DNA of 64,000 bases. Source: Verrucomicrobiota bacterium (lineage in GTDB: Bacteria; Verrucomicrobiota; Kiritimatiellia; JAKQHR01). The notes under the pieces were generated by a model. It saw only the letters and a list, made by a program, of their open reading frames with translations, did not search any database and was not told the DNA's origin. The DNA is taken from the NCBI GenBank assembly GCA_029557905.1, contig JAKQHR010000070.1:5613-69612 (forward strand). The letters are read 5' to 3'. Shown here piece after piece: positions 2,279 to 52,700 of the stretch (positions within the stretch are counted from its first letter, which is position 1; each line of letters starts with the position of its first letter). A program made the position numbers and the translations under genes.

Positions 2279-4345
2279 TCAGAACTGGAAACCGGCCAGG
2301 ATCGGATCATGGTCGCTTTGTCCGCGCCGGGGATATTTTTCGCTGCCGGCAAAGTCGCTGTTGATGTGCACGGCGTTCACGTGCTTCAGCTTTTTGTGCA
2401 GGCTTTCCGTCACGAAGAGATGATCCAGCGTCTGGGCCTGTCCCTTGAAGACATAACTATAGGCATTCTCCGGCCGGGTTCTGAGCATTTCGTCATACAG
2501 GTTGACCATATCGGCCGCGTAGAGCCCGCCCAGCTGATCCGTCGGCAGCATCGGATCAGGCTCGTCCGGCCGGGGGAATGTGTTCAAGTCACCGCCCACT
2601 GCAGCCAGAACCTTTTTGTCATCTTTGCGCAGAGCGCGAACCAGATCGGCGCTGAATTGCGCCTGATTCTGGCGCTCGGGCACATAGTTCTGCGGCTGGC
2701 TCTTGAAGTGATTGTTCAGCAGATAAATGCGGCGGGCCTGCTCCCCGGCGCCGAAATCGAATGCGGCCATCTGCGGTCCGCGCTCATGCACCACGCCCAG
2801 GATGTCATGCAGAAGATTGAATGCCTTGGGATTTCCAGCCCGACCGCAGTAGGTCATGGTCCGCCCCGCAGACGGCACACACGGCATCACGCCCATCACG
2901 GGATGATCTTCGCTAATCTCCGCGAGCGCGACCCGATCGGGCCGATAAAGGAAGGCCGTGATGATTCCCCGGTCGTCGGCGGCGGCGCGATCGCTGACGG
3001 GTTCATAGGCCGGTCCGCCCAGCCTGCTGATTTCCAGCGCCAGTTCCTGCAGCACGTCGAGTTTCCCGTCGCGGTTGTTGATGTCCCCGACGACCAGTTT
3101 CCCCTCCTCCACCGCGCCGATATCCTGATCTTCCACCTCCTGCAGCATCAGAATGTCGGGCGCCTGAAGATCTTCAATGATTTGACCGGCCAGTCCGCTC
3201 AGCCTGGCCTTGTAGGCATCTTTGGAGGCGGGAACATAGTCATACAGTTTGAGGCCGGAGTAGCCCTGGAATTTACCGTCCGCATCCAGAATGGGCAGCG
3301 CATCCTTTCGGTCAAAATAGTCGCGGTCATCAAAGGGATCGTCACGGTGGTCATAGAGATTTTCAACATTGAAAGTCGCGATCCGCAGCACACTTTCATC
3401 TCCCGCATCAGCATCCGACCGGTTGGCGGAAGGATCTGTGCCGACCTCAAACACAGGCAGGCTGTCCACCTGCACCATGTACTGGCCCATGAAGCGCGCC
3501 ACCGCGCCCATCACCGGCTCTTTAAGAACTTCAAAGGTGCAGGTTTCGGGAAACAGCGGCATGGGGTCGCCGTCGGCACGATCGAGACCCAGCGGCCCGA
3601 GCCCGATGAGATAGCCGTTCTGGTTGTCGAAGATTTCCTCCCGGTCGTCCAGCGGGTGCGGATCGCGGAACGCGCGGCGGGCATAGTTGTTTTCACGGCG
3701 GAGCAGCGGATGCGAAGGATGGATCAGATAAACCATGGATCCCATGCTGTCGCGGTGCGCGCCGGACACCACCGCGCCCGCGGGAACTTTGCAGCGCATG
3801 CCTTCATGCCTGCGCCAGTAGATTTCCGCCTCGCCGGCGTCATCCGGGGGATTGGCCACAAAAGCCTTCAGTTCTGAATCAATGTTGAGCCTGCTCCGCA
3901 TCAGCTTCCTGAACTCGGCCTGCTGCAGCACGGTCTGGCCCGCGCTGGTTCCCATCACCCCTTTCAGGAGGACGTCATCGCCGACATGCGGACGATAAAT
4001 GCCGCCGGACGAGGTGCGCAGAAATCCGTTTGTATGCATATCCACATAAAGACCGTCGGACGTGGACGGATCGCGGTCAGCCGCATCGGCCGGATTCTGG
4101 ATCACAAAACCGTAATAAGAGGGTGTGCTCTTTGAGCTGAACACCAGGACCTGATGGACAATGCCCCGCACAGAAACCGCTTCGCCGGCCGGCGGCGTGG
4201 TTCCGCTCTCCATGCGGTGATGAATGTAACCGGCACTTTCGGTGCCCAGCCCTGCGCATCCGGCCAGAAGCATGGCTGCCAGAGGAATTGCGCATACCGC
4301 GGTTAGGGCTGCATTTGCTTTTTTATATGTCATGCGCATCCTCAT
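2279..4345 (-). CDS. Secreted lipoprotein, endonuclease/exonuclease/phosphatase (EEP) family nuclease-like
   Basis: Lipoprotein signal (AMLLAGCAG). EEP-type region IATFNVENLYD ... ILMLQEVED ... SDHDPILAGF. 688 aa. Confidence 0.5.
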   Translation of the reverse strand: MRMRMTYKKANAALTAVCAIPLAAMLLAGCAGLGTESAGYIHHRMESGTTPPAGEAVSVRGIVHQVLVFSSKSTPSYYGFVIQNPADAADRDPSTSDGLYVDMHTNGFLRTSSGGIYRPHVGDDVLLKGVMGTSAGQTVLQQAEFRKLMRSRLNIDSELKAFVANPPDDAGEAEIYWRRHEGMRCKVPAGAVVSGAHRDSMGSMVYLIHPSHPLLRRENNYARRAFRDPHPLDDREEIFDNQNGYLIGLGPLGLDRADGDPMPLFPETCTFEVLKEPVMGAVARFMGQYMVQVDSLPVFEVGTDPSANRSDADAGDESVLRIATFNVENLYDHRDDPFDDRDYFDRKDALPILDADGKFQGYSGLKLYDYVPASKDAYKARLSGLAGQIIEDLQAPDILMLQEVEDQDIGAVEEGKLVVGDINNRDGKLDVLQELALEISRLGGPAYEPVSDRAAADDRGIITAFLYRPDRVALAEISEDHPVMGVMPCVPSAGRTMTYCGRAGNPKAFNLLHDILGVVHERGPQMAAFDFGAGEQARRIYLLNNHFKSQPQNYVPERQNQAQFSADLVRALRKDDKKVLAAVGGDLNTFPRPDEPDPMLPTDQLGGLYAADMVNLYDEMLRTRPENAYSYVFKGQAQTLDHLFVTESLHKKLKHVNAVHINSDFAGSEKYPRRGQSDHDPILAGFQF

Positions 4346-4348
4346 TTC

Positions 4349-4969
4349 TCAGTTAAAAAAGTCCGCAAACCATGTGGCGGCCCGGTCCTCCGCAGACTGC
4401 ATGAACCGCATCTTACGCCTGCCGCAGATTTTTACAAGGCCATCCGCATCCATATCGGGCCAGTTGATCCGGCACCGCTCCAGAAGAATCTGAAAGACAT
4501 GCCCGCAGTAAAGCGCATCCTCCGCGGCCCGGTGGAACCGGCCGCAGGGCACCTGAAACACGCGCACCAGCGTGCCAAGCTGATAGTTTGGAAGTCCGGG
4601 CCACAGCTTCCGGCTCAGCGTCAGAGTGTCCAGCACCAGGCCCGTCGGAGCCGCGCAGGCCAGTCTCCGCACGGCCGCGTTGATGAATTTGAAGTCGAAT
4701 CGTGCATTGTGCGCCACCAGCGGGAGATCTCCGCAGAACTCCGCGAAACGCGGCAGCACTTCTCCAATCTGCGGACTGCTGCTCACCATCTCGTCCGTGA
4801 TCCCGTGTATTCTGGTCGCCCCTCGAGGAATGGGCCGGCCCGGATCAATCAGCTCGCTGAAAGATTCCCCCGGGATGCCGTCGCTGAACCGCACCGCGCC
4901 TATTTCAATGACGGCATCGCGGTGCGGAGATATCCCGGTTGTTTCGGTGTCGAATGCGACGAAATCCAT
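4349..4969 (-). CDS. DnaQ-like DEDDh 3'-5' exonuclease (DNA pol III epsilon family)
   Basis: Exo I motif FVAFDTETTG, Exo II VAHNARFDFKF, Exo III HRAAEDALYCGHV. Overlaps the upstream MazG-like gene by 1 nt. Confidence 0.75.
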   Translation of the reverse strand: MDFVAFDTETTGISPHRDAVIEIGAVRFSDGIPGESFSELIDPGRPIPRGATRIHGITDEMVSSSPQIGEVLPRFAEFCGDLPLVAHNARFDFKFINAAVRRLACAAPTGLVLDTLTLSRKLWPGLPNYQLGTLVRVFQVPCGRFHRAAEDALYCGHVFQILLERCRINWPDMDADGLVKICGRRKMRFMQSAEDRAATWFADFFN

Positions 4970-5319
4970 TATTCCACGCTCAGGTATTCCGTGTATTTCA
5001 GCGCCTTGCCCCGCACTTTGTCCGCCGGGTACTTTGCGCGGTTCTTTACCAGCTTCTGGCGGGCGGCTTCAATCGGATCAATGCCCATCTGATCGGCCAG
5101 GTGGGCCAGAAGGATCTGCACATCGCCGATCTCGTCCATGATCACGTTTTTTTTCTTTTCAGGCAGATTGCGGCTCTGCTCCCCCGTCAGCCACAGAAAA
5201 TGCTCCATCACTTCGGCCACCTCCACCGAAAGGGCCATGATGAGATTACGGGGCGAGTGATACTGTTCCCAGTCGCGCTCCTGCGCGAACTGCTTGATGT
5301 CTCTGATCAGCGCTTCCAT
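4969..5319 (-). CDS. MazG-like nucleotide pyrophosphohydrolase (small, single-domain)
   Basis: 116 aa with EVAEVMEHF ... DEIGDVQILL-type MazG motifs. Translationally coupled to the downstream exonuclease gene. Confidence 0.6.
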   Translation of the reverse strand: MEALIRDIKQFAQERDWEQYHSPRNLIMALSVEVAEVMEHFLWLTGEQSRNLPEKKKNVIMDEIGDVQILLAHLADQMGIDPIEAARQKLVKNRAKYPADKVRGKALKYTEYLSVE

Positions 5320-5366
5320 AGTTGATTCCTTTTTTTACCGGCGCATCATGAACGGAATGGAACACC

Positions 5367-5798
5367 GTGACAATAATGTTGTTTAAATATATGGCATCAC
5401 CTAGTCTTGGACTGATGAAATTTACAGCCCTTGCTGGCGGTCTGATGATCATGCTGGCCTCCGGTTGCGCCACACGGGGTCCCCGGAGCATACTCCCGCC
5501 GCCGCTGATCACCTATGACGGCCAGGGAAGGATTCTGCGTCAGGTGCAGTATAATCCCGACCACAGCGTGAACACCGTTAAAGCGTATCAGTATCCTGAC
5601 GGCGGGGTGACGCTTGAGACCGTCACTGTCTATGACAGCACCAACGGCTGGACCGTGACTGAAACCTACAACATGACGGACAGCGCCGTCGGGCTCAAAA
5701 ACGTCAAACAGTACGATGCCGGCGGCAACCTGCTCAGCGACCGGAATGCTCTCGTCAATCCCGGCAGCCGTTCCGTCAGAATCAACAATAGCCCGTGA
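5367..5798 (+). CDS. Small secreted lipoprotein, paralog A (unknown function)
   Basis: Signal peptide plus lipobox (MLASGCA). True start may be the ATG at 5415 (MKFTALAGG). Shares motifs with the ORF at 6009-6407 (YDGQGRILRQV..., GWTVTE..., NPGSRSVRI). Confidence 0.5.
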   Translation: MTIMLFKYMASPSLGLMKFTALAGGLMIMLASGCATRGPRSILPPPLITYDGQGRILRQVQYNPDHSVNTVKAYQYPDGGVTLETVTVYDSTNGWTVTETYNMTDSAVGLKNVKQYDAGGNLLSDRNALVNPGSRSVRINNSP

Positions 5799-6008
5799 AG
5801 CCTTGTTTCGCGGCGGGGGTGTAGGGATAGGCTCTGTCCCGTCCATTTCTGAACGCGCCCCCGGCGGGCTTCTCACGATAAATCCGGGATTTCTGCGCTC
5901 CGCGCATTATTCGGAAAGTTGATGTATATTTAGTGCTCGGACAGAGAGCGTGCAAGATGTGACGCGGGTCGCAATGAGCAGACCATCGTCATATCGGGAG
6001 GCGCTTTC

Positions 6009-6454: not shown

Positions 6455-7522
6455 ATGAATCTAGGCATCATTGGACTGCCCCAGACGGGCAAAAAAACCG
6501 TTTTTGAGCTGCTGACCGGCATCCACGCGCAGAAGGCTGTCACGAAGGACGGCATCGCCTATGCCATGGCAGCCGTGCGCGACCCGCGCGTGGATAAACT
6601 TTCGGCCATGTACAAGCCCAAGCGCACGCGCTATGCGGAGTTCGAGATGGCGCTGCCTCCCGACATCCAGCCCGATGCCAGCCGCAATGCCGGCTGGATC
6701 GAGCCGCTCCGGCGCGTGGATGCCCTGCTCCATGTCGTCCGCGCCTTCGAAGCCCCGGAGGTTTTCCATATCAAAGGGGATGTGAACCCGGCGCGCGATT
6801 ATGATCTGGTCGAGACCGAACTGCTGCTGGCCGATCTGGGAACCGTCGAGACGCGCCTGACCCGCATGGCGAAGGAAATCAAGAAGAAGGGCGACACCAC
6901 CAGCGACCGCGAGGAGGCCGTTCTGAAACGGTGCCAGCAGCACCTCGAAACCGGCGCGCCGCTGCTGACCATGCAGTTCTCCGATGAGGAACTTAAACTT
7001 GTTGCCAGCCTGAAATTTCTAACTCTGAAGCCCGTCATCACCGTCTTCAATACCGGTGAAAACATTTCCAAAGCGCGCGAAGCATTGAAGGACACCGAAA
7101 CGCGGATCAAAAAGCATGGTGCGGAGCCCGTGTATCTGAGCGCATCCATTGAGAAGGAAATGCTTGAGCTTTCAGAAGAAGAACGCGCGATGTTCATGGC
7201 TGATCTTGGGATTGAAGAGCCGGCCGCTCACCGCCTGTCGCGCGCGGTGTACGCAAGTCTGGGCCTGATCAGTTTCTTCACCGTCGGACCGGATGAAGTC
7301 AAGGCGTGGCCGCTCCGCGCGGGCACAAGAGCCCCGCAGGCGGCCGGGAAAATTCACACCGATCTTGAGCGCGGATTCATTCGGGCCGTGACCATCTCCT
7401 ATGATCACCTCATCGAGGCCGGCTCCGAACACACCGCCAAAGAGAAGAATTACTATGTCCTGAACGGCAAGGATTATGTCGTCAAGGACGGCGACGTCAT
7501 CGAAATCAGATTCAATGTTTAG
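6455..7522 (+). CDS. ychF: Ribosome-binding ATPase YchF (Obg family GTPase)
   Basis: G1 motif GLPQTGKKT, 355 aa, conserved C-terminal TGS-like end KDYVVKDGDVIEIRFNV. Confidence 0.85.
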   Translation: MNLGIIGLPQTGKKTVFELLTGIHAQKAVTKDGIAYAMAAVRDPRVDKLSAMYKPKRTRYAEFEMALPPDIQPDASRNAGWIEPLRRVDALLHVVRAFEAPEVFHIKGDVNPARDYDLVETELLLADLGTVETRLTRMAKEIKKKGDTTSDREEAVLKRCQQHLETGAPLLTMQFSDEELKLVASLKFLTLKPVITVFNTGENISKAREALKDTETRIKKHGAEPVYLSASIEKEMLELSEEERAMFMADLGIEEPAAHRLSRAVYASLGLISFFTVGPDEVKAWPLRAGTRAPQAAGKIHTDLERGFIRAVTISYDHLIEAGSEHTAKEKNYYVLNGKDYVVKDGDVIEIRFNV

Positions 7523-7527
7523 TTATT

Positions 7528-7860
7528 ATGAAAAAAGCGCTGTGTTTTATCCTGCTGTCACTGTTTACCGGCTGTTCCTCCCTGATCACACAGTTTGGAA
7601 CGGATAAAGACGATATGTATGAATGCGGCCCGCCGGTAAAGGTCAAACAGATCTACAGCGGAACTGCGTGCAACATTCTTCATGCGAAAGCCGTCATCAA
7701 CGGGACCACAGGAATGGATGACCCGGGCCGGGCCATTGAAGTGTGCATATTCCCCTTCTACTATGTATTTGAATTCCCGCTTTCACTGGTCATGGACACC
7801 GTCCTGCTTCCCATGACGATTTGCAAACAGATTATCTACGGAGACTTGACCATAGACTGA
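7528..7860 (+). CDS. Small lipoprotein (unknown)
   Basis: Signal peptide with lipobox LFTGCSS. 110 aa. Confidence 0.4.
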   Translation: MKKALCFILLSLFTGCSSLITQFGTDKDDMYECGPPVKVKQIYSGTACNILHAKAVINGTTGMDDPGRAIEVCIFPFYYVFEFPLSLVMDTVLLPMTICKQIIYGDLTID

Positions 7861-7976
7861 TGAAGTGGATCGCCTATATTCTGGCCGTCTTCGTTGTCTG
7901 GCTGCACGTGTATTCCTATGTGCACACACATTCAGATAAGGTGACTTCTGAATCAACCATGTTTGAAGCCTTTTAG
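7860..7976 (+). CDS. Putative 38-aa single-TM His-rich micropeptide (MKWIAYILAVFVVWLHVYSYVHTHSDKVTSESTMFEAF)
   Basis: Not in the ORF track (under 60 aa). Its ATG overlaps the TGA of the upstream lipoprotein gene (ctgATGAag), suggesting translational coupling. Hydrophobic core followed by HxYxYxHxH. Confidence 0.25.
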   Translation: MKWIAYILAVFVVWLHVYSYVHTHSDKVTSESTMFEAF

Positions 7977-8008
7977 GGGGATATCATTGATTTGGCTGGA
8001 GGACTTCG

Positions 8009-9388
8009 ATGTCACGAAAATACCGATTAATGCATAAACTGCATGCAGCACTCGCATGTTTTCTCACACTGGCTTGCTGCGCAACGGCACAAACACAGGA
8101 TCTGCAGGCTGAACTCATGGCCGCCGCTCAAAAAGGGGAACTCGCGAAGATTGAAGAACTGATGGATGCGGGCGCTGATCCTCACGCCTGCAGCAAATAC
8201 AGTGAAAGTCCGTTCGGCAGAGCGGCACGGGCCGGTCATACTGAGGCCGCACACCTGATGCTGGATAAAGGCGGAGTCACTCAGAATCCGGAGAAACAGA
8301 ATTGCCCCACTCCTCTCATGATGGCGGCCATGACGGACTGCACGAACCTGATCGCACGACTTCTTGAAGCGGGGGCTGATGTCAACGAAAAGCGCATAGG
8401 CGGGCGGACGCCTCTCATTCTGGCCGCGCAGAATGGACACAATGAAGCCGTGCGCATGCTGCTCGATAACGGCGCCGACATGAACGTGACGGTGGGGCTG
8501 GATAACATGACGGTTGTGCAATGGGCCATATTCACGGGGAAAAAGGACACGGTGGAACTTCTGCTGGATCGAGGGGCGGATCCCGGCCCCACTCCGCTGA
8601 TGGGCCCAGCCTGCCAGGGGAATCTGGAAATGATGGAAGTACTGGTTTCCCGAGGAGCGGATGTCAATGCACGACGTTTGGCGGCGACTTCAGTGAGGAA
8701 TAATCAGGAATGGGAAGCCGCCCTTCATGCGGCCGCAACCTGCTGCCGGACAGACTCCATGGCATGGCTTCTGGAGCACGGGGCACCGGTGGATGATCCG
8801 GGCGCGTATGGCAAAACGCCTCTCATGTCTGCGATCACAGACCGCTGTCACGACGGGGCACTGCTTCTGATTGAGAAAGGAGCAAACGTCAATGCCGTTG
8901 ACCGGCTCAACCTGACGCCATTGATTTATGCTGCAAGGGGAGGTGATCCAAATGTCATCCAAATGCTTCTCAAACACGGGGCAGATGTAAACTTCAAGGG
9001 GAAATCCGGCATGACCGCCCTGGACGCAGCCTTGGAATGGGAACACGATCACATTGCAGTGCTGTTGATCAAATCCGGCGCAGATGTGACGGCCGACACG
9101 CTGCTGCGCGCGGCGCAGGAACGCAGCGCGGCATGGGATAATGGTGAACTCATGCAGAGCATTCTGGATCGGGGTGTTGATGTCAACAGCACAAGCGATC
9201 TGGGAGAAACCGCGCTTATGGCTGCAGTCCAGAAAGGCCTAACAGATAATGTTCAATGGCTTCTTTCTCGGGGCGCGGACGCGACACTTAAAGACAACAG
9301 CGGGAAAACAGCCGAGGATTATACAAAGGATCCAAAGATCCTTGAAGCACTGCGCCGGTCGCGGGAAGAAAATGTTTCCACAGAATGA
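8009..9388 (+). CDS. Secreted ankyrin-repeat protein (about 12 ANK repeats)
   Basis: Signal peptide. Repeated TPLMxAAxxGHxxxVxLLLxxGADVN ankyrin consensus throughout 459 aa. Confidence 0.8.
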   Translation: MSRKYRLMHKLHAALACFLTLACCATAQTQDLQAELMAAAQKGELAKIEELMDAGADPHACSKYSESPFGRAARAGHTEAAHLMLDKGGVTQNPEKQNCPTPLMMAAMTDCTNLIARLLEAGADVNEKRIGGRTPLILAAQNGHNEAVRMLLDNGADMNVTVGLDNMTVVQWAIFTGKKDTVELLLDRGADPGPTPLMGPACQGNLEMMEVLVSRGADVNARRLAATSVRNNQEWEAALHAAATCCRTDSMAWLLEHGAPVDDPGAYGKTPLMSAITDRCHDGALLLIEKGANVNAVDRLNLTPLIYAARGGDPNVIQMLLKHGADVNFKGKSGMTALDAALEWEHDHIAVLLIKSGADVTADTLLRAAQERSAAWDNGELMQSILDRGVDVNSTSDLGETALMAAVQKGLTDNVQWLLSRGADATLKDNSGKTAEDYTKDPKILEALRRSREENVSTE

Positions 9389-11952: not shown

Positions 11953-12065
11953 GAAAAATCAATGAAAAAAGGCTATTTTTCAGCATTTTAGGCCGTTTTG
12001 GGCACTTTTTGGTCGTTTTGTGGCATTTTTTCGTTGTTTTTTTAGACTTTTCGGCTGTTTTCTTC
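11953..12065. promoter_or_regulatory. Phased A/T-tract element (about 10-bp periodic T4-7 tracts): predicted intrinsically curved DNA upstream of arsR1
   Basis: ggctattttt/cagcatttta/ggccgttttg/ggcacttttt/ggtcgttttg/tggcatttttt/cgttgttttttt/agacttttc/ggctgtttt. 9-10 T-tracts at helical phasing. Similar element at 52590-52700. Followed by TTGACA at about 12088. Confidence 0.5.
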
Positions 12066-15669: not shown

Positions 15670-16053
15670 ATGGCTAAATATAGAAATATGAATCTTCGCG
15701 GGGCGGAGGCTGTTTTTCAGGCCCTGTCGGACAAGGGCCGCCTTCGCATCCTGTGCGCGCTCCGCCACGGGGAACTGTGCATCTGCTGGATTGTCGAAAT
15801 GCTGGGCTTCGCCCCCTCCACCGTATCCAGGCACCTTTCGGTTCTCCGCAGCGCCGGACTGATCCAAACCCGCAAGCAGGAGCGCTGGGTTTACTGCTCG
15901 CTGCCCTCCATGCCCGTTTCTCCAATCATTGGAAAAATACTCCCGCAGATATTCCAATCACTGGAAAATTCACCGGAAGTCCGGGCGGATGCGCGGCTGA
16001 TTAAACGAATCCTTAAAAAAGAGGCATCGAAGTGCAAAATCCGGAAAAAATGA
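15670..16053 (+). CDS. arsR: ArsR-family As(III)-responsive repressor (second copy)
   Basis: HGELCICWIVEMLG (ELCVC-type site) and STVSRHLSVLRSAGLI HTH. Start at the internal ATG (MAKYRN). Confidence 0.75.
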   Translation: MAKYRNMNLRGAEAVFQALSDKGRLRILCALRHGELCICWIVEMLGFAPSTVSRHLSVLRSAGLIQTRKQERWVYCSLPSMPVSPIIGKILPQIFQSLENSPEVRADARLIKRILKKEASKCKIRKK

Positions 16054-22402: not shown

Positions 22403-22463
22403 GCTTAATCAAGCTTCCTGCTCGACTTGCGCGGCCGCTTCGCTTAATTTGGCGGCATGGTAT

Positions 22464-22556
22464 TTCAAAAGTTCCAATCATTGGAAGTTTCTGCGCGAAA
22501 AGTTCCAATGATTGGAAGTTTTTTTGCAAAAAGTTCCAGCCATTGGAAGTTTTGAA
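22464..22556. repeat. Array of 3 near-palindromic units (AAAGTTCCAAT-SA-TTGGAAGTTTTT), 31-bp period, ending 13 nt before the glycogen synthase ATG
   Basis: GTTCC cores at 22471, 22502 and 22533. Inverted repeat TTCCAAT/ATTGGAA around each core. Second, similar array at 43941-44030. Confidence 0.8.
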
Positions 22557-22568
22557 AGGGGTCGAGAC

Positions 22569-24395
22569 ATGAGTGCGAAAGCGCCACACGACAAGAATTC
22601 GTCATCGGTTGCGGAAAATCTGCGGCCGCTTCTTTTTGAGGCGGCATGGGAAGTCTGCCAGAAAATCGGGGGCATTTATACCGTGATTCGAAGCAAGGTC
22701 CCGGAGATCATGTCCACCTGGGGGCAGCGTTACTGCCTGCTGGGCCCCTATAATCCCGAGGTATCGCCGCTGGAATTCGAGGAAACAGAACTGGACGGCC
22801 CTCTCGCCCCGGTGATCGCCAAAATGCGCGAAAAGGGGTTCGTGGTGCATACCGGCTACTGGCTGGTGACCGGCCGGCCGCGAGTGATCCTGTTTGAATA
22901 CAAGCAGTTTGAATCGCGCCTGCCGGAAATCCGCAAGATGATGCAGGACCATCACGGCATTCCCGTGGCGCCGGAGGACAGCCTCACCAGCGAGGTTGCG
23001 CTGTTCGGCTGGGTGCTGACGGAGTTCTACACGATGCTGAACGACCTCAAGTCGCTCAAGAATCCTGTTATTGCGCATTTCCATGAGTGGATGTCGGCCA
23101 CGGCCATTCCCGAGCTGCGCCGCCGCGGCAACCGCGCAGGCATTGTTTTCACCACGCACGCGACGATGCTCGGACGCTACCTTGCGATGAACAACCCTGA
23201 GTTCTACACCCACATGACCGGCATCGACTGGCAGGCGCAGTCCCATCATTTCAACATCATGGGCCCTGTCATGATCGAGCGTGCCGCCGCGCACGGGGCG
23301 CATGTCTTCACGACGGTCAGCAAGGTGACCGGCCGCGAGTGCGAGGCGCTGCTGGACCGCGCGCCGGACGTGCTGCTCCCGAACGGCCTGAACCTGCGCC
23401 GCTTCGTGGCGATGCACGAATTCCAGAACCTTCACCGCAGCTACAAGGAGAAGATCCACCAGTTCGTTATGGCGCACTTCTTCCCCAGCTACACGTTCGA
23501 TCTCGACAACACGCTGTATTTCTTCACCGCCGGCCGCTACGAATACCGCAACAAGGGCTTCGACATGACCCTCGAGGCGATGGCCCGCCTGAATTACCGC
23601 ATCAAGCTCAGCGGCCTCAACCGCACCGTCGTGTTTTTCCTGATCACGCGGCAGGCCTACAAGTCGGCCAGCGCCGAAGTGTTCCGCCGCCAGGCGATGC
23701 TCGAGGAAATGCACGGCGCGTGCGAATCCATCAAGGATTCGCTGGGAAGCAGGCTTCTGATGGCGGCGGCAAAGGGACATATTCCCGAATACGAAACACT
23801 GGTGGACGAGACATCCCGCATGAGGCTGCGCCGCATCATGCACGCGTGGCCGTCCAGCGTCCTGCCCCCGTTTGTGACCCATGACCTTGTGAACGATGAC
23901 GAGGTGCTGCAGAAAATCCGGGCCTGCAAACTGATTAACCGGCCCGATGATCCCGTGAAGGTGATCTACTACCCTGAATTTGTTTCCACCAGCGACGGCC
24001 TCCTCGGCATTGAATACGACAACTTCGTGCGCGGCTGCCATCTGGGAATATTCCCGAGCTATTATGAGCCGTGGGGTTATACCCCGCTCGAGTGCGTGGC
24101 CTGCGGTGTGCCCGCCGTCACCAGCGACCTGAGCGGCTTTGGAAGCTATCTCAACCGCTGCATGCCGGACTGGGCCGAGCGCGGGCTTTATGTGGCCCCG
24201 CGCCGCGATAAAACCGAAGATGAATCCGTCAACGAGCTTACGGGCTGGCTCTACAATTTCGCACAGATGGACCGCCGTGAACGCATATCTCTCCGCAACA
24301 AGGTGGAGCGCTCCTCGGATGAGTTCGACTGGCACAATCTGGGCAGGAACTACACCGAGGCCTATGAAACAGTCTGCCGGCGAGCGGGGTTTTGA
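22569..24395 (+). CDS. Glycogen synthase, eukaryotic-type (GT3 family)
   Basis: N-terminus LFEAAWEVCQKIGGIYTVIRSK (GT3 hallmark). Length about 610 aa. C-terminal EPWGYTPLEC. The six-frame start at 22512 lies inside the repeat array, so the start was moved to the ATG at 22569. Confidence 0.65.
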   Translation: MSAKAPHDKNSSSVAENLRPLLFEAAWEVCQKIGGIYTVIRSKVPEIMSTWGQRYCLLGPYNPEVSPLEFEETELDGPLAPVIAKMREKGFVVHTGYWLVTGRPRVILFEYKQFESRLPEIRKMMQDHHGIPVAPEDSLTSEVALFGWVLTEFYTMLNDLKSLKNPVIAHFHEWMSATAIPELRRRGNRAGIVFTTHATMLGRYLAMNNPEFYTHMTGIDWQAQSHHFNIMGPVMIERAAAHGAHVFTTVSKVTGRECEALLDRAPDVLLPNGLNLRRFVAMHEFQNLHRSYKEKIHQFVMAHFFPSYTFDLDNTLYFFTAGRYEYRNKGFDMTLEAMARLNYRIKLSGLNRTVVFFLITRQAYKSASAEVFRRQAMLEEMHGACESIKDSLGSRLLMAAAKGHIPEYETLVDETSRMRLRRIMHAWPSSVLPPFVTHDLVNDDEVLQKIRACKLINRPDDPVKVIYYPEFVSTSDGLLGIEYDNFVRGCHLGIFPSYYEPWGYTPLECVACGVPAVTSDLSGFGSYLNRCMPDWAERGLYVAPRRDKTEDESVNELTGWLYNFAQMDRRERISLRNKVERSSDEFDWHNLGRNYTEAYETVCRRAGF

Positions 24396-28364: not shown

Positions 28365-28441
<77 letters not shown>

Positions 28442-43926: not shown

Positions 43927-43940
43927 GCGGCAGAATCTAG

Positions 43941-44030
43941 CGTTTTTTCCAATGATTGGAAGTTTTTTCGGGAAAAGTTCCAATGATTGGAAGTTTTTCA
44001 AGCGAAAGTTCCAATGGTTGGAACTTTTTA
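43941..44030. repeat. Second array of 3 near-palindromic TTCCAAT-N2-ATTGGAA units, 31-bp period, 15-18 nt upstream of the DUF3108/rfaE/kdsB operon start
   Basis: TTCC cores at 43947, 43978 and 44009. Unit is about 85-90% identical to the array at 22464-22556. Confidence 0.8.
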
Positions 44031-45170
44031 CGGCCGGACCAGCCGGCCCATGAAGAGAATCGCGCCGGTCTGCCGGTCACGAATGATGTAAATGAACGGA
44101 TGGTCGGCGCGAAAGACCGGCTGGCGTCTTGCTGCGGTTTTGACCATGACAACCGCCGTGGCCGCGGCCGCTTCGGTGCCCTCCTCATTCACCTCGACCA
44201 GCGCGGAATGGATCACATCCGAGATGAAGAGTTCCGGCTCGCCGGTGATGCCGCTGAAATCGGCCCGGGCTGAGAACGCGATACCCATGCCCATTTCAGA
44301 GAGGACTTCCTTCAGGCCGGCGTTCTGCTGCGCGGTGAAGCGAGGGATGCTGACGTCCACTTGTGTTTTTTTCAGGTTGTCAATGCACTGCTTCAGCAAA
44401 GTCTCGTCCAGCTTCTGTTCCAGATCGCTGATCCCGTCCCGTTCGCGCGGGAGCAGAAGCAGCATGGCGACGCGCTCGCCGATGTACGGCATTTCCAGCG
44501 CCTGGAAACTGGCGGCATCGGCATAAAGAAACTCGCCGTTCTGCTTCATCATCGGGACTTTCACCGGCGCTGATCCTGAATGAAAAAGTTCTTCGCGCGT
44601 GTCAGTCTCAGCAAAAGCCTTCGCCCATTTCCCCTTGAACCAGATTGTGTTGGTGAGAACCAGCCGCGCAAGAGCATTGAGCGCCCCGGCCGGGAGAAGC
44701 TCCCTGATCCGGCCGGCCGTGGCCAGGCCGATCCAGCTGTTGATTGTCTGCCGGGCCGCTTCGGCATCCGCCTTGAAGTCCACGGGCTGGATGTCGGCAT
44801 CGAACACCTGCTGCAGCGCATTTTCATAGACCTCCCGAATATAGAAACCCTCCTGCGGCCACATGCGGTTGGATATCTGCATCCGCGGGCCGCCGAACGA
44901 TGATATTTCGCGCAGAGACCTGATCCGGGCTGTCATCTGCGCATCGTACTCCGCGGGATCGGCCGGGACACCGAGGGTGGCGGCCATGACCGAGGCGGTT
45001 TCGGCGCGCGCACCCTTGAAGGCCATGCCCAGGGCGGTGCTAATACTGTGGGGCGAGCACGCCACATTTCCCTCCGTTGCGGCGAGCCGGTGATAGAGCT
45101 TGAGCGCGAAAGCGCTATCGTCCCCTCGGACAGAGATGGCAAACAAAAGAAGTAGAATCAGTTTTTTCAT
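44028..45170 (-). CDS. Serpin (serine protease inhibitor), secreted
   Basis: Signal peptide. Reactive-centre-loop hinge GTEAAAATAVV and C-terminal FRADHPFIYIIRD. Confidence 0.85.
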   Translation of the reverse strand: MKKLILLLLFAISVRGDDSAFALKLYHRLAATEGNVACSPHSISTALGMAFKGARAETASVMAATLGVPADPAEYDAQMTARIRSLREISSFGGPRMQISNRMWPQEGFYIREVYENALQQVFDADIQPVDFKADAEAARQTINSWIGLATAGRIRELLPAGALNALARLVLTNTIWFKGKWAKAFAETDTREELFHSGSAPVKVPMMKQNGEFLYADAASFQALEMPYIGERVAMLLLLPRERDGISDLEQKLDETLLKQCIDNLKKTQVDVSIPRFTAQQNAGLKEVLSEMGMGIAFSARADFSGITGEPELFISDVIHSALVEVNEEGTEAAAATAVVMVKTAARRQPVFRADHPFIYIIRDRQTGAILFMGRLVRP

Positions 45171-52589: not shown

Positions 52590-52700
52590 AAAAAAGCTGT
52601 TTTTTAGTCATTTTTAAGCGTTTTTTGTTGATTTTACGGCATTTTTTGCCTTTTTAGGCCATTTTTTCGCGTTTTTAGGCCATTTTTGGAACTTTTTAGC
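52590..52700. promoter_or_regulatory. Phased T-tract element (10 T5-6 tracts at about 10.3-bp period): predicted curved DNA immediately upstream of nadA
   Basis: gctgtttttt/agtcattttt/aagcgtttttt/gttgatttt/acggcatttttt/gcctttttag/gccatttttt/cgcgttttt/aggccattttt/ggaacttttt. Shares the GGC(C)ATTTTT decamer with 11953-12065. Confidence 0.5.

Follow-up and report, generated by a model that had tools for sequence, protein, structure and literature searches.

A phased three-box palindromic array upstream of a DUF3108-rfaE-kdsB operon as a probable local copy of a lineage-wide TTCCA-N5-TGGAA signal in Kiritimatiellia

The stretch of 64,000 nucleotides (nt) analyzed here (contig JAKQHR010000070.1 of a Verrucomicrobiota bacterium; below, the window) carries an array of three palindromic boxes between a serpin gene and the first gene of a DUF3108-rfaE-kdsB operon. 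We propose that the array represents, at this locus, one copy of a lineage-wide signal with the core TTCCA-N5-TGGAA, to which a dimeric protein would bind cooperatively, and we put the probability of this reading, which is drawn from sequence comparisons, at roughly 60%. In its strongest form, the signal is the box TTCCAATSATTGGAA. The core is two-fold symmetric, and the centers of its half-sites lie 10 bp, i.e., one helical turn, apart.

Structure and conservation of the serpin-DUF3108 array

Tandem Repeats Finder reports a repeat at positions 43947 to 44034 (period 31, 2.8 copies, 82% matches, score 120). The core of the repeated unit is the 15-bp palindrome TTCCAATNATTGGAA, present in its box form as three copies at 31-bp steps between 43947 and 44023. 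The parts of the array, which fills the gap of 97 bp that separates the serpin stop codon from the DUF3108 ATG, are as follows.

43926-43924, minus strand: DUF3108 start codon, in the first gene of the DUF3108-PfkB (rfaE-like)-kdsB operon
43927-43946, minus strand: 20-nt segment between box 1 and the ATG, probably a leader or initiation region; length conserved, and sequence largely so, in relatives
43947-43961: box 1, TTCCAATGATTGGAA, a perfect 15-bp palindrome, the closest of the three to the DUF3108 ATG and kept in relatives
43962-43977: spacer 1, GTTTTTTCGGGAAAAG, in the order T-run, short G+C center, A-run; the better-conserved spacer in the alignment of relatives
43978-43992: box 2, TTCCAATGATTGGAA, perfect, 31 bp from box 1
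43993-44008: spacer 2, GTTTTTCAAGCGAAAG, whose middle 6 nt vary across relatives
44009-44023: box 3, TTCCAATGGTTGGAA, 31 bp from box 2 and with A9 to G as its one mismatch
44028-44030, minus strand: serpin stop codon (TAA), 4 nt from box 3

An earlier, sequence-only reading of this DNA had described three 31-bp palindromic units here, and both Tandem Repeats Finder and the box search recover them. It had also placed the end of the array over the stop region of the serpin gene, and indeed the stop codon lies 4 nt off box 3, within the T-run flank: the CTTTTT next to box 3 continues into it. Its estimate of 15 to 18 nt between the array and the start codon was roughly right: box 1 lies 20 nt from the DUF3108 ATG, and the T-run at 43941 lies 14 nt from it.

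The identities of the genes were confirmed through Pfam marks on relatives (Serpin, DUF3108, PfkB [rfaE-like], CTP_transf_3 [kdsB], and Glycogen_syn). In distant relatives, the DUF3108-PfkB-kdsB genes are followed by kdsA, lptC, lptA-like, and lptB-like genes, so that "lipopolysaccharide (LPS) operon" is a fair label. An exact look-up of the window DUF3108 protein returned no identical record; the nearest, at 98% identity, belongs to a Kiritimatiellae metagenome-assembled genome (MAG; GCA_028696205.1).

Relatives with DUF3108 proteins at 98, 85, 78, and 77% identity to the window protein keep the arrangement of serpin gene, three boxes, and DUF3108 gene, along with the 31-bp periods and the 20 nt before the ATG; the center of one spacer has diverged freely. 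Likewise, the order GEVED-protein gene, three boxes, and glycogen synthase gene (glgA), found elsewhere in the window, is kept in the Kiritimatiellia MAG JBFXGK (90% glgA identity) and in a second relative (89%). The alignments indicate that the three boxes are under purifying selection at orthologous loci.

Core motif and selection inside genes

Counts of TTCCA-Nn-TGGAA at different gap lengths single out a gap of five bases.

Window: 8 sites at n = 5, and 0 to 1 at each other n (0 to 11)
Uncultured bacterium bin-1020: 306 sites at n = 5, and at most 2 at any other n
Pontiellaceae B1224 (21 kb): 17 sites at n = 5, and 0 to 1 at each other n
Pontiellaceae B12227 (21 kb): 12 sites at n = 5, and 0 to 1 at each other n

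Base composition predicts about 0.04 sites in the 64-kb window, where 8 are seen, and about 0.02 in each 21-kb Pontiellaceae stretch, where 17 and 12 are seen; both of these stretches were unselected except for a kinase gene. With its halves swapped, the core has zero occurrences in the window. When the full box was sought in the window with up to two mismatches, eight copies were found against 0.23 expected, a number that none of 100 shuffled sequences reached. All eight are grouped in three arrays, and beyond them there is only noise, with no tail of degenerate copies.

The core also occurs inside genes. Fully intragenic sites make up 11 of the 17 in B1224 and 11 of the 12 in B12227; in the lineage of the window the proportion is one in eight, and this single site is conserved. 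Two perfect boxes in a Pontiella MAG lie within the gene for a PfkB-family hexose kinase, where they encode SNDWK...FQSLE. The kinase genes with boxes are listed here; all are from Pontiellaceae, encode SNDWK-x5-FQSLE, and have their boxes 31 bp apart.

Locus L105, 1902-2837: PfkB-family kinase gene with boxes
Locus L134, 10001-10936: PfkB-family kinase gene with boxes
Locus L135, 10001-10933: PfkB-family kinase gene with boxes

Because the homologues of this kinase are all 310 to 313 amino acids long, the box-bearing genes have acquired no insertion. The B1224 and B12227 orthologues use the same codons at both boxes and have a third box-like site 31 bp farther on. Among 120 kinase homologues, FQSLE is present in 33 and SNDWK in 14, and it appears that the DNA signal shapes the protein motif SNDWK-x5-FQSLE.

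Between B1224 and B12227, only about 50 to 55% of identical residues are encoded by the same codon. Nonetheless, of seven intragenic sites compared, which lie in the genes for the PfkB kinase, YacP, and Dus, six have every one of their 10 core bases unchanged and in the same place. The five central bases vary in four of the six conserved sites, and the sites occupy all three reading frames. These comparisons indicate that selection acts on the duplex DNA sequence of the bipartite dyad. Two regimes can be distinguished: most genomes have arrays of full boxes in intergenic DNA, whereas Pontiellaceae have dispersed, mostly intragenic sites with variable centers.

Helical phasing and array anatomy

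At least 215 arrays of two to seven boxes are present in the loci examined. Center-to-center distances between 346 neighboring boxes are distributed as follows.

20 to 23 bp: 34
29 to 33 bp: 309
43 bp: 2
64 bp: 1
24 to 28, 34 to 42, and 44 to 51 bp, all permitted by the search pattern: 0

The dyad sites are therefore spaced by whole helical turns, with periods of 22 and of 30 to 33 bp (about two or three turns). In bin-1020, 162 of 185 periods are exactly 32 bp, and in two sheep-rumen MAGs distances of 22 and 30 bp alternate, adding up to 52 bp, i.e., five helical turns.

Conservation within arrays covers the box and a few flanking A/T positions, and the center of the spacer is G+C rich without conserved sequence. 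Among 569 boxes, 437 are perfect and 565 have G or C as the center base; the chief variant is T7 to C. The flanks follow lineage: the window and JBFXGK have "AAAAG-box-(G/C)TTTT," and most of the others have "TTT-box-AAA." About 97% of the core sites in array-type genomes are full boxes in intergenic phased arrays.

Distribution across genomes

Other genomes were scanned at one genome per species with two perfect boxes 8 to 36 bp apart as the criterion, which yielded at least 119 stretches. The box was found in at least about 21 Kiritimatiellia-type genomes, in arrays of two to seven copies, and the box-bearing genomes span 50 to 68% G+C. Among the matches listed, all genomes belong by label to the Planctomycetes-Verrucomicrobia-Chlamydiae (PVC) bacteria, one "Bacteroidales"-labeled contig aside. 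These labels include many Kiritimatiellae or Kiritimatiellia MAGs (from rumen, sediment, and other sources), an isolate of Pontiellaceae (a member of Kiritimatiellia), and a Pontiella MAG, and further "Verrucomicrobiota" MAGs, "Lentisphaerae GWF2_57_35," a "Spartobacteria" MAG, and "uncultured bacterium bin-1020." The window itself fits among them, with a DUF3108 protein 98% identical to that of a Kiritimatiellae MAG and a glycogen synthase 90% identical to that of JBFXGK.

The "Bacteroidales" contig (JAEEIJ010000041.1, 5.5 kb) carries a five-box array with a 22/30/31 architecture and the box variants of sheep- and goat-rumen Kiritimatiellae, and it is probably mis-binned. A further three-box array in JBFXGK (locus L132, 824-900) has a DUF481 gene on one side and a Mur ligase gene on the other; the start annotated for the latter, at position 891, is probably wrong because it falls within box 3.

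Three Kiritimatiellia genomes with distant DUF3108 orthologues (43 to 54% identity) have no boxes in 20 kb each, so that abundance is patchy within the class. These distant orthologues overlap an upstream holA-like gene. In one such MAG (locus L128), the DUF3108 operon adjoins a Y1 transposase gene (4242-5900), which is followed by a partial, 99% identical copy (7429-8598), and a reverse transcriptase gene lies nearby.

The only viral contig matched was an 18.9-kb phage or prophage contig, IMGVR_UViG_3300035698_006241 (loci L130 and L131), with genes for a terminase, a portal protein, a protease, a major head protein, and a DNA methyltransferase. Box matches place three arrays on it.

L131, 650-767: first array of the phage contig
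L131, 14358-14466: second array of the phage contig
L130, 3429-3505: third array of the phage contig

Genomic context of the arrays

Co-directional, divergent, and convergent gene pairs all have arrays between them, in proportions that match the background. An array is present in about two thirds of the intergenic gaps measuring at least 50 bp within the loci of bin-1020, a figure that reflects the choice of these loci for array presence; the equality among gap types is consequently the informative part. Gaps of 50 to 600 bp contain an array in 56 of 84 co-directional, 9 of 13 convergent, and 11 of 17 divergent cases. Convergent examples checked by eye are icd facing the gene for a large surface protein and an O-antigen-ligase-like gene facing murJ; a divergent example, also checked by eye, is a pair of glycoside hydrolase genes whose ATGs lie about 38 nt from the array on each side. 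Within co-directional gaps, the median distance from the array is 23 nt to the upstream stop codon and 42 nt to the downstream ATG (P = 8e-4).

The genes next to arrays have little in common. The 80 downstream genes match 116 Pfam families, the largest of which accounts for at most 4 of the 80, and a coherent regulon is thereby excluded. In genomes with few arrays and at long arrays, the adjoining genes encode unrelated enzymes, and no DNA-binding gene recurs among them.

Other arrays and A/T-rich elements in the window

Besides the serpin-DUF3108 array, the window contains the following sites.

22472-22548: twin array, with boxes at 22472, 22503, and 22534 (period 31), upstream of the glycogen synthase gene
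15920-15966: third array, with boxes at 15920-15934 and 15952-15966, one mismatch each, period 32
44493-44507: solitary core site, TTCCAGCGCCTGGAA, within the serpin gene at 484 bp from box 3

Tandem Repeats Finder reports the twin array at 22467 to 22553 (period 31, 2.8 copies, 85% matches). Its last box ends at 22548, exactly 20 nt ahead of the glycogen synthase ATG at 22569. The sequence-only reading had noted this twin, at 22464 to 22556, as having the same unit, copy number, and period, and all three properties are borne out. Of its implied count of two array loci, both exist, but the array at 15920 to 15966 had been overlooked. This third array sits in the 3' end of an arsR-like open reading frame (ORF), upstream of arsC, and encodes ...PIIGK...FQSLE.... 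In style it resembles the arrays of bin-1020 (32 bp, "TTT-box-AAA"), whereas the other two arrays of the window have 31-bp periods and the form "AAAAG-box-GTTTT." At the corresponding position, ars genes are absent from the close relative JBFXGK. Given this absence and the differing array style, the ars island may be foreign.

At the solitary site in the serpin gene, the core is kept in all five relatives and the center varies (GGCGC or GGCAT).

Two further kinds of sequence were observed. Between the stop codon of the GEVED-protein gene and the glgA array, about 35 nt within 22416 to 22460 (CTCGACTTGCGCGGC...GCGGCAT) are conserved in both relatives; this region holds a small GCCGC/GCGGC inverted repeat, to which the terminator scan gave a weak flag. 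At 11986 to 12065 and 52590 to 52700, tracts of four to seven T residues recur every 10 to 11 bp over about 80 to 110 bp (Tandem Repeats Finder periods of 10 and 21). Both runs lie upstream of a plus-strand gene, with a called minus-strand gene on the opposite side. Their appearance suggests intrinsic DNA curvature and a second type of phased A/T element in this genome.

Proposed mechanism

In the mechanism that we consider most likely, each box is occupied by one and the same homodimeric, sequence-specific DNA-binding protein. Such a dimer would use successive major grooves to contact TTCCA and TGGAA, and the A/T-rich center AATSATT would make for the strongest sites. A spacing of 22 or of 30 to 33 bp would put every dimer on the same helix face; neighboring dimers could cooperate because their boxes sit two or three turns apart on that face. 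The phased A/T runs in the spacers may aid bending or wrapping of the DNA, and an array as a whole would be a high-affinity site for several dimers. At the serpin-DUF3108 locus, an occupied array would have to overlap the initiation region of the DUF3108-rfaE-kdsB operon, since only 20 nt separate it from the ATG, and it would also lie in the way of read-through transcription from the serpin gene. It is likely, judging from this geometry, that the array modulates the operon, as one of many genes with the signal. For the signal in general, the candidate roles may include nucleoid or boundary organization, global regulation, and service as a DNA-uptake or self-recognition signal. We know of no cognate regulator for the box.

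The sequence-only reading had argued that two unlinked arrays of identical geometry imply function rather than chance. On this point it is upheld by the shuffled controls, the phasing, the purifying selection, and a geometry typical of protein-binding sites.

Several points weigh against the proposed mechanism. A tblastn search with Escherichia coli Lrp and Fur found no match in about 1 Mb of loci, which is a small fraction of each genome. The information content of the box is unusually high for operators, most copies being perfect and the window having no degenerate tail. The very patchy abundance of the signal is more typical of mobile or drive-maintained repeats. In addition, the two-perfect-box criterion over-samples arrays and perfect boxes; the unbiased samples are the window and loci L127 to L129, L132, L134, and L135, i.e., a few 20-kb stretches. 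Finally, the gene calls are heuristic, coming from a simple and crude codon-usage model with several cases inspected by eye.

Alternative explanations

A different account keeps a motif-reading protein and changes its biological role: the motif would be a chromosome-level signal maintained by drive or selection, either for uptake or self-recognition, like the uptake signal sequences (USS) and DNA uptake sequences (DUS), or for methylation, repair, or nucleoid functions, like highly iterated palindrome 1 (HIP1). Arrays would then simply be places that tolerate many copies. This account draws on the density in Pontiellaceae (12 to 17 sites per 21 kb, mostly intragenic), on an over-representation estimated from base composition at about 200-fold to 900-fold, and on the indifference of the motif to gene orientation and function. 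USS and DUS have a density of about 1 per kb, and paired copies are often located in terminators; the arrays discussed here lie nearer to stops than to starts. Furthermore, CCAN5TGG, which is contained in the core, is a specificity of type II restriction-modification systems. However, helical phasing and the grouping of about 97% of sites into arrays of at least two boxes are foreign to USS, DUS, and HIP1, and such strict phasing and near-obligate grouping point to cooperative binding. Three arrays on a phage contig are also unexpected for a self-recognition signal. On balance, we regard this account as rather unlikely.

The boxes could instead be palindromic repeats akin to repetitive extragenic palindromic (REP) sequences, bacterial interspersed mosaic elements (BIMEs), or REPINs, spread to tolerated sites by a transposase, whether like the REP-associated tyrosine transposases (RAYTs) or of another kind, and acting, if at all, through hairpins. 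High copy number, palindromy, a mostly extragenic location in array-type genomes, large differences in abundance between genomes, and proximity to stop codons all fit such repeats. The arsR-arsC array, with the flanks and 32-bp period of another lineage, would fit arrival on foreign DNA. Some REP dimers, too, have spacers of like length and different sequence, and intragenic REPs are documented (PMC3733652). Against this, REP sequences are imperfect palindromes of 20 to 40 bp, one end of which bears the tag GTAG or CGTC (PMC3733652), whereas the box measures 15 bp, or 19 to 25 bp with its A/T flanks, and has no such tag. The boxes stay perfect while their spacers are randomized, compensatory changes are absent, and arrays are stable at orthologous positions. 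Divergent gaps hold arrays as often as other gaps do, the sites inside genes evolve by substitution and leave gene length unchanged, and the same box recurs in genomes of 50 to 68% G+C. The lone Y1 transposase, at locus L128, lies in a box-free stretch, and tblastn finds no relative of it in the window or in the roughly 1 Mb of loci. A transposase-borne origin is therefore improbable.

A role in RNA, with tandem hairpins serving between the serpin and DUF3108 genes as a bidirectional terminator or as a 3'-end or intercistronic mRNA stabilizer, would account for the long nested hairpins into which array RNA is predicted to fold (-38.3 and -49.2 kcal/mol; z = -4.7 and -5.5), for the T-runs that follow boxes in this genome, and for the median of 23 nt by which arrays follow stop codons. 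Folding energy is uninformative here, since tandem palindromes fold strongly by construction. Moreover, the two halves of a spacer are less complementary than the composition of the alignment columns predicts (z = -4.6 in bin-1020 and -3.9 in other genomes), and changes in boxes are one-sided in 151 cases and mirrored in 4, i.e., covariation that would preserve a hairpin is absent. The A/T polarity of the flanks is independent of the direction of neighboring genes, and arrays occur in divergent gaps. A consensus scan found no terminator in the arrays, and Rfam matched only a tRNA, at 28368 to 28441, in the whole window and nothing at the arrays. Helical quantization of the spacing has no rationale in RNA, and at the conserved intragenic cores, with their variable centers, a hairpin would amount to only 5 bp. 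We consider a function of this kind very improbable.

Equally hard to credit is the model of the sequence-only reading, in which a dedicated regulator responsive to carbon status couples glycogen synthase to the LPS core operon. The two arrays do have identical geometry, the same 20-nt distance to an ATG, and conservation in close relatives. Yet there is a third array in the window, at arsR/arsC, and there are hundreds of arrays in at least about 21 genomes beside functionally unrelated genes of 116 Pfam families. Arrays are also present between convergent genes, the Pontiellaceae core is mostly intragenic, and distant DUF3108-rfaE-kdsB operons have no array at all. A shared regulator thus survives loosely, as a common trans-acting factor, but not as a dedicated coupler of glycogen and LPS synthesis.

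Other candidates were rejected. A promoter spanning adjacent boxes (TTGGAA-N16/17-TCCAAT) is contradicted by arrays not being depleted between convergent genes, by a -10-like hexamer without A at position 2, and by a sigma-70 promoter scan that found nothing in arrays. A sigma-54 enhancer fails because 20 nt to the ATG is too short for a downstream promoter. An intrinsic terminator was dismissed on the negative scan, the A/T-rich stem, the flank polarity unlinked to genes, and the arrays in divergent gaps. CRISPR arrays adjoin cas genes. Their repeats measure 24 to 48 bp and have unique, regularly sized spacers (PMC3733652); here the repeats are 15 bp and the spacers 7 to 18 bp, with two to seven repeats per array at hundreds of loci among housekeeping genes. 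Repeat size, locus number, and housekeeping context likewise rule out iterons of a plasmid origin and coding repeats.

Implications

Tentatively, and with a confidence just short of even, we propose that Kiritimatiellia possess a hyper-abundant, lineage-wide signal with a dedicated reader, arranged in many genomes as helically phased arrays that take up most of the intergenic DNA, which would act either as nucleoprotein punctuation of the chromosome or as a palindromic uptake or self-recognition signal and which constrains codons and peptides (FQSLE and SNDWK). Cultured Pontiellaceae isolates carry the motif, so fishing for the protein with DNA probes is feasible. For annotation, ORFs that run through arrays and the peptides FQSLE, SNDWK, and PIIGK would be by-products of a DNA signal, and for binning, the motif could serve as a lineage marker. 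Studies of gene expression and engineering in this poorly studied group of polysaccharide degraders would have to reckon with the signal.

Comparison with known systems

The geometry recalls the operator arrays of Lrp/AsnC, NrdR, and NtrC, with 15-bp dyads 31 to 32 bp (three turns) apart on one helix face, and cooperative binding and DNA bending would be implied here as well. A 7-1-7 dyad with an inner AAT-N-ATT is also a feature of Fur-family boxes; we take both likenesses as leads only. Operator arrays, however, belong to limited regulons and have degenerate sites, whereas the Kiritimatiellia signal comprises hundreds of near-perfect, functionally incoherent sites, some of them between convergent genes and inside genes.

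The USS of Pasteurellaceae and the DUS of Neisseriaceae share with the signal its lineage specificity, its density (about 1 per 1 to 2 kb in Pontiellaceae), its presence in coding and noncoding DNA, its enrichment just 3' of genes, and helically phased A/T tracts beside the core. They differ in being non-palindromic and without phased tandem arrays, whereas the signal described here is palindromic and phased and also occurs on a phage contig. To our knowledge, competence and biased uptake are not known in Kiritimatiellia.

Like REPs, BIMEs, and REPINs, the boxes are clustered, interspersed extragenic palindromes of patchy abundance, with some intragenic copies and sometimes with variable spacers of constant length. 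They differ in their shorter unit, in the missing tag, in lacking hairpin-preserving changes, and in that no RAYT was seen in the loci; divergent gaps carry arrays equally often, the box is common to the whole class, and intragenic sites are free of insertions.

HIP1 of cyanobacteria, over-represented by a factor of 15 to 300, is conserved both in ORFs and between them, and its role is thought to be related to the chromosome or nucleoid (PMC5861425). The Kiritimatiellia core is likewise a short palindrome that is over-represented throughout a lineage and conserved beyond neutral expectation, and in Pontiellaceae its sites are found both in ORFs and between them, with conservation from one genome to the next. 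Unlike HIP1 (GCGATCGC), it has another sequence and is bipartite and longer, with 10 specified bases over 15 bp, and most of the genomes studied here confine it to intergenic phased tandem arrays.

A literature search found no description of the box, of its core motif, or of palindromic or intergenic repeats in Kiritimatiellae. The signal belongs to a broad known kind, that of lineage-wide iterated palindromic signals, for which phased multi-box arrays with free spacers, filling most intergenic regions in some genomes, have not been described. If the proposal is correct, a bacterial class has a signal selected at the DNA level that is comparable to HIP1 or to USS and DUS but novel in its architecture.

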